Sequence record: MZ189261.1
Reading direction: 5' to 3' (one strand)
DNA: 64,000 nucleotides
Origin: Escherichia phage S143_2
Both the position numbers and the translations under genes were made by a program. The notes under the pieces were generated by a model. It was not told the origin of the DNA and searched no databases. It saw only the letters and a program-made list of their open reading frames with translations. This document shows, piece after piece, positions 25,799 to 34,280 of the stretch. Numbering within the stretch: the first letter of the stretch is position 1; each line of letters starts with the position of its first letter.

Positions 25799-26380
25799 TT
25801 ATAACAACCCTGTCAAATCATTCCAATGCTTCCGGCATAATGACACATATCTATCAGTATCACCAATTTCAATTTGACTGCCATCTGTAATTGGAAGTCC
25901 GTCTTCCGTGACTCTAGCTACCATTGTGGCCTTTTTACCACAATGACAGACACCTTTAAGTTCAACAAGCTTATCGGCAATAGCCATTAATGCTTGAGAA
26001 CCTTCAAATAGATTACCTTTAAAATCTGTTCGTAGTCCATATGCCATTACCGGCACATTGTATACGTCAACAATACGACTAAGTTGATACACCTTTTCAG
26101 TAGTTAAGAATTGAGCTTCGTCAACAAATACACAATGAATATCCTTTTGTGCTGCAGCCCATTTATAGAATTCAAAGATATCCATGTCTTTTGTAATTAT
26201 ATTGGCGTCCTGACGAATACCAATACGAGAGACTATTTCACCTTTTGAATCGCGAGTATCAATAGCCGGTTTAAGAACTAATACACCCATGCCACGTTCT
26301 TTATAGTTATGAGCGGCAGTAAGTAATGAAGCAGACTTACCAGCGTTCATAGCGGCATATGTAAAAATTAAACTAGCCAT
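25799..26380 (-). CDS. tk: thymidine kinase
   Basis: 193 aa; P-loop NAGKSASLL; C-terminal Zn cluster CHCG...C; T4 Tk same length. Confidence 0.9.
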   Translation of the reverse strand: MASLIFTYAAMNAGKSASLLTAAHNYKERGMGVLVLKPAIDTRDSKGEIVSRIGIRQDANIITKDMDIFEFYKWAAAQKDIHCVFVDEAQFLTTEKVYQLSRIVDVYNVPVMAYGLRTDFKGNLFEGSQALMAIADKLVELKGVCHCGKKATMVARVTEDGLPITDGSQIEIGDTDRYVSLCRKHWNDLTGLL

Positions 26381-26773: not shown

Positions 26774-26976
26774 TATTCTTCTACATGTTGTTTACGACCT
26801 TTCTTATCAATAAAGGTATATTCAACGAATGTTCCGATGTAGTCTTTATCTACATCATGTGGACTATTAATTGGACATTTAGTACGACAAATGCGTTCCC
26901 ATTGACGAATAATTACTGCTTTATTTTTAGGATCAAACGGATGTGGGTAATGCACATTCATAATAATGGTTCCCAA
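26749..26976 (-). CDS. hypothetical protein
   Basis: 75-aa ORF. Confidence 0.4.
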   Translation of the reverse strand: MGTIIMNVHYPHPFDPKNKAVIIRQWERICRTKCPINSPHDVDKDYIGTFVEYTFIDKKGRKQHVEEYCLKVTWL

Positions 26977-27455
26977 TCAACAATCACAATTTCTAGTTTA
27001 GTGGAATATGTATCAAGAATTTCTTCAATGATATCCCAGTTTCCACCACCTATACCTGCACCAATTCTTGGCATATAAATTACAGGCTTTGTTATCTTAT
27101 TTTTTCCGAATTCATTTAATTCTATTATACAATTCGTTAAAGCATAGTACTCAAAATTAGGTCCCGGCTCAAACTGTGTATAAAGATTAAAGCAATAAGC
27201 TTTATGGGTCTTAAAATATTTTTCATAAACCGAATAAGTCCCGAGTTTAGACTCGTCTCCGAATTCGGTTTGAAGTTTATCGGCTTCTAGAATTTTTGGA
27301 TAAGCCTTTGCTAATTGTCCTGCCACACCGGCGCCCATTGTATGAAAACAATTACACCCATGAGCTATATTATTACCTTTAGAAAACAGGGCGACAATAT
27401 CGCCCTTGATATAGTTTTTAATCACTTGCTGCAAGTCCTCTAGTATAAGAGTCAA
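26958..27455 (-). CDS. macro-domain protein (ADP-ribose binding/hydrolase fold)
   Basis: 165 aa; GDIVALFSKGNNIAHGCNC...MGAGVAGQLAKA resembles macro-domain Gly-rich diphosphate-binding loop (compare viral X-domain GGGVAGAL). Confidence 0.55.
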   Translation of the reverse strand: MTLILEDLQQVIKNYIKGDIVALFSKGNNIAHGCNCFHTMGAGVAGQLAKAYPKILEADKLQTEFGDESKLGTYSVYEKYFKTHKAYCFNLYTQFEPGPNFEYYALTNCIIELNEFGKNKITKPVIYMPRIGAGIGGGNWDIIEEILDTYSTKLEIVIVDWEPLL

Positions 27456-27765
27456 CTAGACGGTCCACCATAGAATTGCATGCTGCCTTATCTTTAGGTT
27501 CCGCCACCGAGCATTCTAATATTTGCCATTTTTTATAGTATCTTTTAATTAAGGTAGACGCCTTGAACCTACTAGACGCCCCATCTTTTTCTCCGTCTTT
27601 ATACGCATATAACAATTTTTGTGAAAAATCTACTTTACACTCTTGACTTTTACCACAATAATCAGACGCCGTTCTGTTTGTATACTCCGTTACATCAGTA
27701 TATGTAGTATTAGCAAGAGCGCTAAATGAAACCAAGCCAACTATTAAAGCCAACATTTTGGTCAT
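27418..27765 (-). CDS. secreted Cys-containing protein (115 aa; occupies T4 vs position)
   Basis: N-terminal signal peptide MTKMLALIVGLVSFSALA; 5 Cys. Confidence 0.5.
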   Translation of the reverse strand: MTKMLALIVGLVSFSALANTTYTDVTEYTNRTASDYCGKSQECKVDFSQKLLYAYKDGEKDGASSRFKASTLIKRYYKKWQILECSVAEPKDKAACNSMVDRLVDSYTRGLAASD

Positions 27766-28304
27766 TCTTTTATTTCCAGTAGTTTATTTGATTTAAGGTA
27801 ATTAGCCTTTTCTAGGACTTCAGAAGCATATTTACTTCCAGCACTTGTCTTCCATCCCGCATTATATGAGGATATAGCTTTTCTTATATCCCCGTTATGT
27901 ATATTTAACCAATAAGAAAATTCGATATAAGCCCATCTGGCTGAATTAGACCGCTTAGATAGCATTTTCTTAATTTGGGCATCAGTCATATTATAACCAA
28001 GCTGGTTAATTCTTGCCCTCATTGTTGGTAGATAATTTTGGAACATTCCATACGCATGGTGACCTTTCTTATTTTTAAGATTAATACCGGCAGATGATTC
28101 CTGCCATAGTATTGCGGCCATTATGTATCCAAGTCCTTTCTTATGCATATTTTCATGCGTTTTAAATTTTCCATCCTTAGAAAACTGTTCCCCAAACTGA
28201 TAAGCATAATTCAAGTTATCGAGTTGGACATTACTAAAAGTATGCTCGGAGCTATGTGCTGATAACGAAAGAGCAAATAGACCAGCGAGTAGTGCTTTTC
28301 TCAT
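27762..28304 (-). CDS. secreted lytic transglycosylase (SLT domain)
   Basis: 180 aa; signal peptide; SLT family motifs ILWQESSAG (catalytic ES), GMFQ, SYNAGW. Confidence 0.6.
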   Translation of the reverse strand: MRKALLAGLFALSLSAHSSEHTFSNVQLDNLNYAYQFGEQFSKDGKFKTHENMHKKGLGYIMAAILWQESSAGINLKNKKGHHAYGMFQNYLPTMRARINQLGYNMTDAQIKKMLSKRSNSARWAYIEFSYWLNIHNGDIRKAISSYNAGWKTSAGSKYASEVLEKANYLKSNKLLEIKE

Positions 28305-28312
28305 GTTTACCT

Positions 28313-28771
28313 CTAGATTTTAATCACTGCTTTAGAAGCTTTTCCTGGTAGTCGTTTACTGTTAATAATAGCCATTCTGCATTGAAGAGTCTTCATTTTG
28401 AATGCTGGATTTTCGCGACAAACTGTAAGTCCTAACCAAAGATTTCCATCAGTTATTTCTAAACGGCCTGGACGATATTCGACACCTTCGACAAAATCTT
28501 CATCAACATCTGGACGTGCCGGCATTGATAAAAATTCTGCAACTTCTTTAACATGATTTTTTACTTTACGAAATAATTCAAAAACGTAGTTCTCATCTAT
28601 TTCTCTCTGGATAGCACGATCTAAGAGATGTTGAGAATACTTGATATGAAAGCCTGGTAGTCCAAGAGACTTTGCAGCATCTTTTATACCGGCATTTATT
28701 TTGCGGAACTCCGTTTCAAAGATTCGACGGAGTTTATTACGGCGGATAAAAACGTCAGAATTGATAGTCAT
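28313..28771 (-). CDS. regB: RegB endoribonuclease
   Basis: 152 aa; MTINSDVFIRRNKLRR...KYSQHLLDRAIQREIDENYVFELF...GRLEITDGNLWLG matches T4 RegB. Confidence 0.85.
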   Translation of the reverse strand: MTINSDVFIRRNKLRRIFETEFRKINAGIKDAAKSLGLPGFHIKYSQHLLDRAIQREIDENYVFELFRKVKNHVKEVAEFLSMPARPDVDEDFVEGVEYRPGRLEITDGNLWLGLTVCRENPAFKMKTLQCRMAIINSKRLPGKASKAVIKI

Positions 28772-33806: not shown

Positions 33807-34280
33807 TTATAGGATGGTAGTGAGCACCTTATATAATGATTTGCCCATTACATATTCCCATTGAGAAGGTTTAATTAAAGCGAATGCATCAAATTCAGGA
33901 ATCTGTCGTCCGTCTGGGAATGTATGATAGGAATTACAAACACTGTTTCTGAATTGCTCGTGCTCTACAGGGATGGTATATAGGAACAGATGAATATTCT
34001 TATTGTCTGAGTAATGATGTTCACCTAGGTCTTTCAGGAAGGCAGGGTCATATTGTGTAAACCCAGTTTCTTCTTCGCATTCACGAATAGCGGCTTCGAT
34101 AGGAGATTCGCCGGGCTCGACACGACCTTTAGGAATATCCCACCGATGAGCTAAAGAACCTTTAGGACGAGAACCAGTTACACGCCCCATGAATAATTCT
34201 TTATCTTCGGTAAGGAAAATAATACCAGCTGATAGTTCTTTCACTTTATTTTTCTTACTCATCATCTCAAATTCCTGCAT
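33807..34280 (-). CDS. nudE: Nudix hydrolase NudE
   Basis: Nudix box GRVEPGESPIEAAIRECEEETGF; start probably at internal MMSKKNK. Confidence 0.85.
   Translation of the reverse strand: MQEFEMMSKKNKVKELSAGIIFLTEDKELFMGRVTGSRPKGSLAHRWDIPKGRVEPGESPIEAAIRECEEETGFTQYDPAFLKDLGEHHYSDNKNIHLFLYTIPVEHEQFRNSVCNSYHTFPDGRQIPEFDAFALIKPSQWEYVMGKSLYKVLTTIL

Follow-up and report, generated by a model that had tools for sequence, protein, structure and literature searches.

A stand-alone TARG1-class macrodomain of Escherichia phage S143_2, orthologous to T4 Tk.4, is a probable orphan antitoxin against DarTG2

The closest described counterpart of the gene considered here is tk.4 of phage T4. In a HIDEN-SEQ preprint of November 2025, a T4 transposon library was passed through DarTG2-expressing E. 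coli; tk.4 was the single significant match of this T4 screen, being depleted specifically with DarTG2, and a clean deletion of the gene sensitised T4 to DarTG2 (bioRxiv 10.1101/2025.11.20.689424). The same study renamed tk.4 as adfM (AdfM, for anti-DarT factor Macrodomain) and proposed, as something that "seems likely", that T4 AdfM removes ADP-ribose from DNA (10.1101/2025.11.20.689424). The anti-DarTG2 role of Tk.4 is, therefore, already known, having been published for T4 in 2025. The target of DarT2 is thymidine in single-stranded DNA, which becomes ADP-ribosylated, and the NADAR protein AdfN of T4 counters only the guanosine-specific DarT1 (PMC11825919).

Other members of the macrodomain superfamily have been characterized at the level of the reaction itself. 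Gp104 of phage PhiKZ (Cell Rep 2026), like Tk.4 a phage-encoded stand-alone macrodomain countering DarTG2, was shown in vitro to remove DarT2-made ADP-ribose from an oligonucleotide (PMC13309987). SCO6735 from Streptomyces coelicolor (PDB 5E3B) cleaves thymidine-linked ADP-ribose on DNA, an activity abolished in its Q85A and N27S variants, and the mechanism proposed for this enzyme has the Gln residue placing the distal ribose, with the reaction itself carried out by a water molecule that the backbone keeps in position (PMC9411070).

The window analyzed here (the entire 64,000-nucleotide stretch of Escherichia phage S143_2, record MZ189261.1) belongs to a Mosigvirus, an RB69-type T-even phage, and over a 2.8-kb stretch around the tk.4 gene it shares 98-99% identity with phages pEK20, SSE1 and phi25-307. 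The gene had been predicted from the raw sequence to encode a macrodomain protein between tk and regB, and these two genes do flank it: tk (thymidine kinase) occupies 25799-26380 and regB 28313-28771. The small open reading frames tk.1-tk.3 lie downstream of tk.4 on the tk side, while vs (valyl-tRNA synthetase modifier; 27418-27765, minus strand) and vs.1 (27762-28304) lie upstream, on the regB side. The resulting order regB-vs.1-vs-tk.4-tk.3-tk.2-tk.1-tk is identical in the window, in T4 and in the annotation of phi25-307. Around tk.4 the latter stays in exact base-by-base register with the window, and coordinates can be transferred from it there; the transfer fails at 34 kb and 44 kb, where the two are out of register, which points to indels relative to phi25-307 in the internal-protein and small-ORF region (~30000-64000). 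The neighborhood also recurs beyond these phages. Of 80 viral-contig loci that carry a homologue, 41 have a recognizable tk, 41 a vs.1 and 41 a regB, and these are the same 41 loci for all three.

The protein itself is close to its T4 counterpart. T4 Tk.4 (NP_049723) and the window protein are identical at 130 of 155 residues (84%; E=4e-103), all 155 residues being aligned without gaps from the same start position. The differences amount to 25 substitutions, and every family-invariant residue is common to both. A dN/dS of 0.079 against T4 (with dS of ~1.2, nearly saturated) indicates that tk.4 is under strong purifying selection. The window gene is, therefore, the Mosigvirus (RB69-like) orthologue of T4 tk.4. 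The neighboring vs is far more diverged from T4 than tk.4 and carries indels; its dN/dS, tried as a control, was discarded as invalid owing to these internal indels and to a nucleotide identity of 34%. In T4, depletion in minimal medium was reported to be strongest for vs (10.1101/2025.11.20.689424).

The extent of the gene required some revision. In the ORF list of the window it appears as a minus-strand frame of 165 aa (26958..27455) opening with TTG, and HGCNC and MGAGVAGQLAKA stand at residues 32 and 40 of this translation. The original prediction had taken this entire frame as the macrodomain gene. The ORF and the motifs quoted from it are real, but the start of tk.4 is very probably GTG 27425 rather than TTG 27455. 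Relatives are annotated from GTG 27425, which is the exact counterpart of the T4 tk.4 ATG, and it is preceded at 10 nt by a Shine-Dalgarno-like GAGGA (27436..27440, minus strand, as read from the sequence) situated within the 3' end of vs, with an 8-nt overlap between tk.4 and the end of vs. A GAGGA precedes the T4 ATG at a similar distance, although in T4 the overlap with vs is 4 nt. The TTG was rejected as a start because homologues and annotations begin at the GTG/ATG position. The in-frame upstream extension from TTG 27455 (27426..27455, minus strand), with which the longest ORF begins and which overlaps the end of vs, corresponds to the first 10 codons of the 165-aa frame and is probably untranslated. 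The tk.4 (adfM) coding sequence, a stand-alone macrodomain, accordingly spans 26958..27425 on the minus strand, from the GTG start through 155 aa to a TGA stop at 26958-26960. All residue numbers given below refer to this 155-aa protein.

A scan for regulatory sites around tk.4 yielded 10 promoter-like sites (16.3 expected) and 4 terminator-like sites (2.6 expected), neither being above the shuffled controls, and hence no dedicated tk.4 promoter is claimed. An 8-bp hairpin (AGGGCGAT-ATT-GTCGCCCT) followed by a T-run was observed at 27388-27406 on the minus strand, inside codons 7-16 of tk.4. Its 19 nt are identical in T4, though the two tk.4 genes are only 80% identical overall. Given that the scan as a whole did not exceed the shuffled controls, this conservation may be a mere reflection of the conserved KGDIVAL peptide.

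The assignment to the macro fold, which was the core of the original prediction, is borne out in agreement by sequence and profile searches, the predicted structure and fold comparison. The Pfam Macro family (PF01661) matched the window protein with 28.9 bits (cut-off 22, E=1.2e-6), the alignment spanning positions 2-117 of the 118-position model. Searching PDB sequences with the protein by itself retrieved BT1257 from Bacteroides thetaiotaomicron (1e-10), Poa1p, SCO6735, TARG1 and the DarG macrodomains; a profile of 63 homologues, searched against PDB, gave BT1257 (5e-18), TARG1 (5e-16), SCO6735 (3e-15), Poa1p (5e-14) and DarG (7e-13). The AlphaFold2 model built on the alignment of 63 homologues (pLDDT 95.7, pTM 0.91) has the three-layer alpha/beta/alpha architecture of macrodomains. 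Foldseek, a check that had been proposed along with the prediction itself, matched it in PDB solely to macrodomains and to designed proteins of similar fold, with TARG1, Poa1p, DarG, BT1257 and SCO6735 as the top matches, and returned no unrelated fold. The nearest relatives by both sequence and structure (TARG1, DarG, SCO6735, BT1257 and Poa1p) are all ALC1-like/TARG1-like. Since all of these tests converge, the 155 residues of the window protein are assigned to the TARG1/DarG/SCO6735 (ALC1-like) class as a single, stand-alone macrodomain.

This classification bears directly on the choice of substrate. SCO6735 and TARG1 accept ADP-ribosylated protein as well, and uracil-ADP-ribose in RNA is a substrate of TARG1, DarG and SCO6735, so one could imagine that Tk.4 reverses ADP-ribosylation of protein or RNA, whether the phage's own Alt/ModA/ModB marks or those of other host transferases. 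T4-type phages have three ADP-ribosyltransferases, and Alt, ModA and ModB modify arginine. TARG1-class macrodomains are not known to cleave the arginine-ADP-ribose linkage, which argues against this scenario, and we consider it very improbable. The original prediction had named tuning of the phage's own marks as one of two possible roles. No support was found for it: the nearest structural relatives are thymidine-ADP-ribose hydrolases of the TARG1/DarG/SCO6735 class, and the depletion of T4 tk.4 was specific to DarTG2. The other role, reversal of host ADP-ribosylation such as that by DarT, gains support from the 84%-identical T4 orthologue, the same gene order and the DarTG2 phenotype of tk.4, the link being orthology with a gene of known DarTG2 role. 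The phenotype as such has been demonstrated in T4 only, and its transfer to S143_2 is what we infer from this orthology.

Membership in the same class does not make the protein a DarG. The NCBIfam DarG model NF048014, whose equivalog cut-off is 250, gave 30.1 bits, with the match confined to positions 4-146 of 338 (the macro part), and the PADLOC DarG model gave 32 bits. Gln84 stands where the DarG proteins from T. aquaticus and M. tuberculosis have Lys80 as catalytic residue (DarG structures: PDB 5M31, 5M3E, 5M3I and 7OMU), and the chain ends at residue 155, without the C-terminal DarT-binding domain. There is no darT gene adjacent to tk.4, whose neighbors are vs and tk.3. PhiKZ gp104, on the other hand, is of the Lys type and resembles DarG: it carries an FPTK motif and matches M. 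tuberculosis DarG with E=9e-25. BLASTP aligned gp104 with the window protein over only 23 residues (E=6e-4), a marginal similarity. The Lys-type site of gp104 and the shortness of this alignment show that the two AdfM proteins represent separate lineages of one class. The name AdfM was, in fact, given independently to T4 Tk.4 (Gln type, nearest to BT1257/SCO6735) and to PhiKZ gp104 (Lys type).

The residues expected to form the active site could be located with some precision. Asn25 and the first glycine loop are contained in residues 22-36 (HGCNCFHTMGAGVAG; 27318..27362, minus strand, from the translation), where the conserved Asn is followed by a GxG loop, M30-G-A-G33; the MGAG motif is thus the first glycine loop, beside the catalytic Asn. 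The second glycine-rich (diphosphate-binding) loop comprises residues 119-130 (PRIGAGIGGGNW; 27036..27071, minus strand, from the translation) and includes G122-A-G-I-G-G-G128. Between them, the NLYTQ motif ending in Gln84 (residues 80-84; 27174..27188, minus strand) was placed by profile alignments. A MAFFT alignment of seven references, in which the window protein was set against BT1257, TARG1, the two DarG macrodomains and PhiKZ gp104, had shifted the catalytic motif by at least one residue and was rejected; the profile alignments used instead are mutually consistent and match the published structural alignment. Among the 63 homologues, there is little or no variation at H22, G23, C24, N25, G31, G33 and A35 or in the M30-G33 and G122-G128 stretches, and P119, I121, G122, G124 and W130 are invariant. 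N25 is aligned with the Asn of HVCND/HICND in BT1257 and SCO6735; its counterparts are Asn27 of SCO6735, a conserved Asn of DarG and N23 of PhiKZ AdfM; the role of this Asn has been addressed for SCO6735 (PMC9411070) and for PhiKZ (PMC13309987). The PRIGAGIGGGNW loop corresponds in BT1257 to PRIGCGLAGGKW and in TARG1 to PRIGCGLDRLQW.

One refinement concerns Gln84. In the profile alignments it stands opposite Lys80 of DarG (NFPTK in both DarG structures) and Lys84 of TARG1 (YLITK), as well as opposite the Gln of BT1257 and Gln85 of SCO6735 (NMIGQ). Human TARG1/OARD1 (PDB 4J5S) operates with a Lys84/Asp125 dyad, whereas the window protein has Gln84 and a Gly within the GAGIGGG loop. The pattern NxY[TS]Q is present in all 120 database homologues and in nearly all of the 80 viral-contig loci. 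A single genuine exception was observed at locus L044 (3001-3450; IMG/VR UViG_2974573495, a 165-kb T4-like contig), whose Tk.4 homologue, ~46% identical and set in the same tk/vs.1/regB neighborhood, has NLYTK, i.e. Lys at the Gln84 position. The natural occurrence of Lys in a syntenic homologue shows that Gln and Lys can substitute for one another at the catalytic position.

By these features the window protein is most similar to SCO6735 (22% identity) and BT1257 (PDB 2FG1/2AFC, ~28-30% identity), both of which share with it the Gln at the Lys80/Lys84 position and the conserved Asn. They come from cellular hosts rather than from phages, and the resemblance is incomplete. The first loop reads MGAG, as in TARG1, in contrast to WGKG in SCO6735 and BT1257. 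The SCO6735-type trait of Val or Ile two residues before the Asn is replaced by the invariant Gly23, opposed to the Val25 singled out in SCO6735. A long mobile loop with two lysines, which in SCO6735 aid action on DNA, is absent from the window protein: the loop following Gln84 is FEPGPNFEY, with no Lys, and it is also shorter than that of BT1257, which has a six-residue insertion after the Gln relative to the Tk.4 profile.

Taken together with the T4 phenotype, these observations lead us to propose that the window protein is an orphan antitoxin that hydrolyses thymidine-linked ADP-ribose on phage DNA and thereby counters DarTG2, a reading to which we assign a probability of roughly 0.78. Upon infection of a DarTG2 host, DarT2 would ADP-ribosylate thymidines in single-stranded phage DNA and block its replication. 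AdfM would then use its two glycine loops to bind the ADP-ribose moiety and would hydrolyse the thymine-ribose bond, restoring unmodified DNA; the replication block imposed by DarT2 would be relieved, with AdfM serving as an orphan antitoxin of phage origin. Catalysis would involve Asn25 and Gln84 instead of a lysine. The presence of Gln84 in place of the catalytic Lys makes SCO6735-type chemistry likelier than the lysine mechanism; in that case, the distal ribose would be set in place by Gln and Asn, with a water molecule carrying out the reaction. Both the hydrolytic step and its thymidine substrate are deduced from characterized relatives. Points that speak against this reading include the missing catalytic lysine of DarG and the lack of any counterpart to the two mobile-loop lysines of SCO6735.

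An alternative is that the protein neutralises DarT2 mainly by binding, either inhibiting the toxin or shielding the modified DNA, and not by hydrolysis. Such a mode of action has a precedent in that DarT was inhibited in vitro by each of the catalytically dead variants SCO6735 Q85A, DarG K80A and TARG1 K84A, most strongly by SCO6735 (PMC9411070). On the other hand, Asn25, Gln84 and both glycine loops are invariant across homologues down to ~36% identity, as would be expected of an enzyme, and a protein of 155 aa, matching the DarG model over positions 4-146 of 338, does not have the DarT-binding domain that DarG carries at its C-terminus. Overall, we regard a role mainly through binding as unlikely.

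Hydrolysis of thymidine-linked ADP-ribose also has to be weighed against the activities implied by existing annotations. The T4 record states that the protein "contains A1pp phosphatase motif", several GenBank records have "macro domain protein", the family is labeled "phosphatase" in PHROG 335 and RefSeq, and other sources use "O-acetyl-ADP-ribose deacetylase". Read literally, the "phosphatase" label implies an ADP-ribose 1''-phosphate phosphatase clearing an RNA-repair by-product in the manner of yeast Poa1p (PDB 6LFQ), which is described as such an enzyme. However, the label is a historical domain name and not a tested activity: it is misleading in that it derives from A1pp, the old name for ADP-ribose 1''-phosphate processing, and not from an assay. 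Moreover, Poa1p is no closer to the window protein than BT1257, DarG or TARG1, and T4 tk.4 has a specific DarTG2 phenotype. A genuine phosphatase of this kind thus seems extremely improbable.

The "deacetylase" label, found in several sources, would instead suit a function on small ADP-ribose-derived molecules, such as immune signals, toxic metabolites or O-acetyl-ADP-ribose. A comparative-genomics survey, which recorded Macro domains in 41% of myoviruses, argued that the Macro, NADAR and Nudix domains of phages are mostly directed at low-molecular-weight ADP-ribose derivatives (PMC9503650). The wide spread of the family in phages may be read in the same direction: by tblastn, 2,798 (~5%) of 50,697 phage records, from many host genera, contain a relative. 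Yet the only phenotype demonstrated experimentally for the orthologue concerns a toxin that modifies DNA, and the nearest characterized relatives act on thymine- or uracil-linked ADP-ribose. Small molecules as the main targets are, in our assessment, highly unlikely. Elsewhere in the window, a 157-aa ORF (33807-34280, minus strand) contains a clear Nudix box (GRVEPGESPIEAAIRECEEETG) and, by its position, is probably the T-even Nudix hydrolase gene. In principle, its product might clear ADP-ribose set free by the macrodomain.

Hydrolysis of thymidine-linked ADP-ribose nevertheless may not be the whole story, as the breadth of the family (~2,800 of 50,697 phage records) may not be fully explained by a single defence system. 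That breadth, along with a lysine-free site for which a Lys variant exists at the L044 locus, leaves room for an unlikely but conceivable extension, in which Tk.4 is a distinct phage branch of TARG1-like macrodomains whose substrates are perhaps wider than DarT2-modified thymidine, DarTG2 being merely the first target noticed. If so, the range could include, for example, uracil-ADP-ribose on RNA or marks left by undiscovered ADP-ribosylating defences.

As the macro domain of T4 Tk.4 had been annotated for years, this analysis adds little new biology; it does illustrate that reading of the raw sequence alone was able to pick out a genuine anti-defence gene and to guess its target. Three points deserve to be retained: a Gln takes the place of the Lys, the label "phosphatase" misleads, and the name AdfM now covers two macrodomain lineages that look unrelated. 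With Gln in the position where DarG has its catalytic Lys, it is SCO6735, and not DarG, that would provide the template for active-site mutants and inhibitors of this protein.
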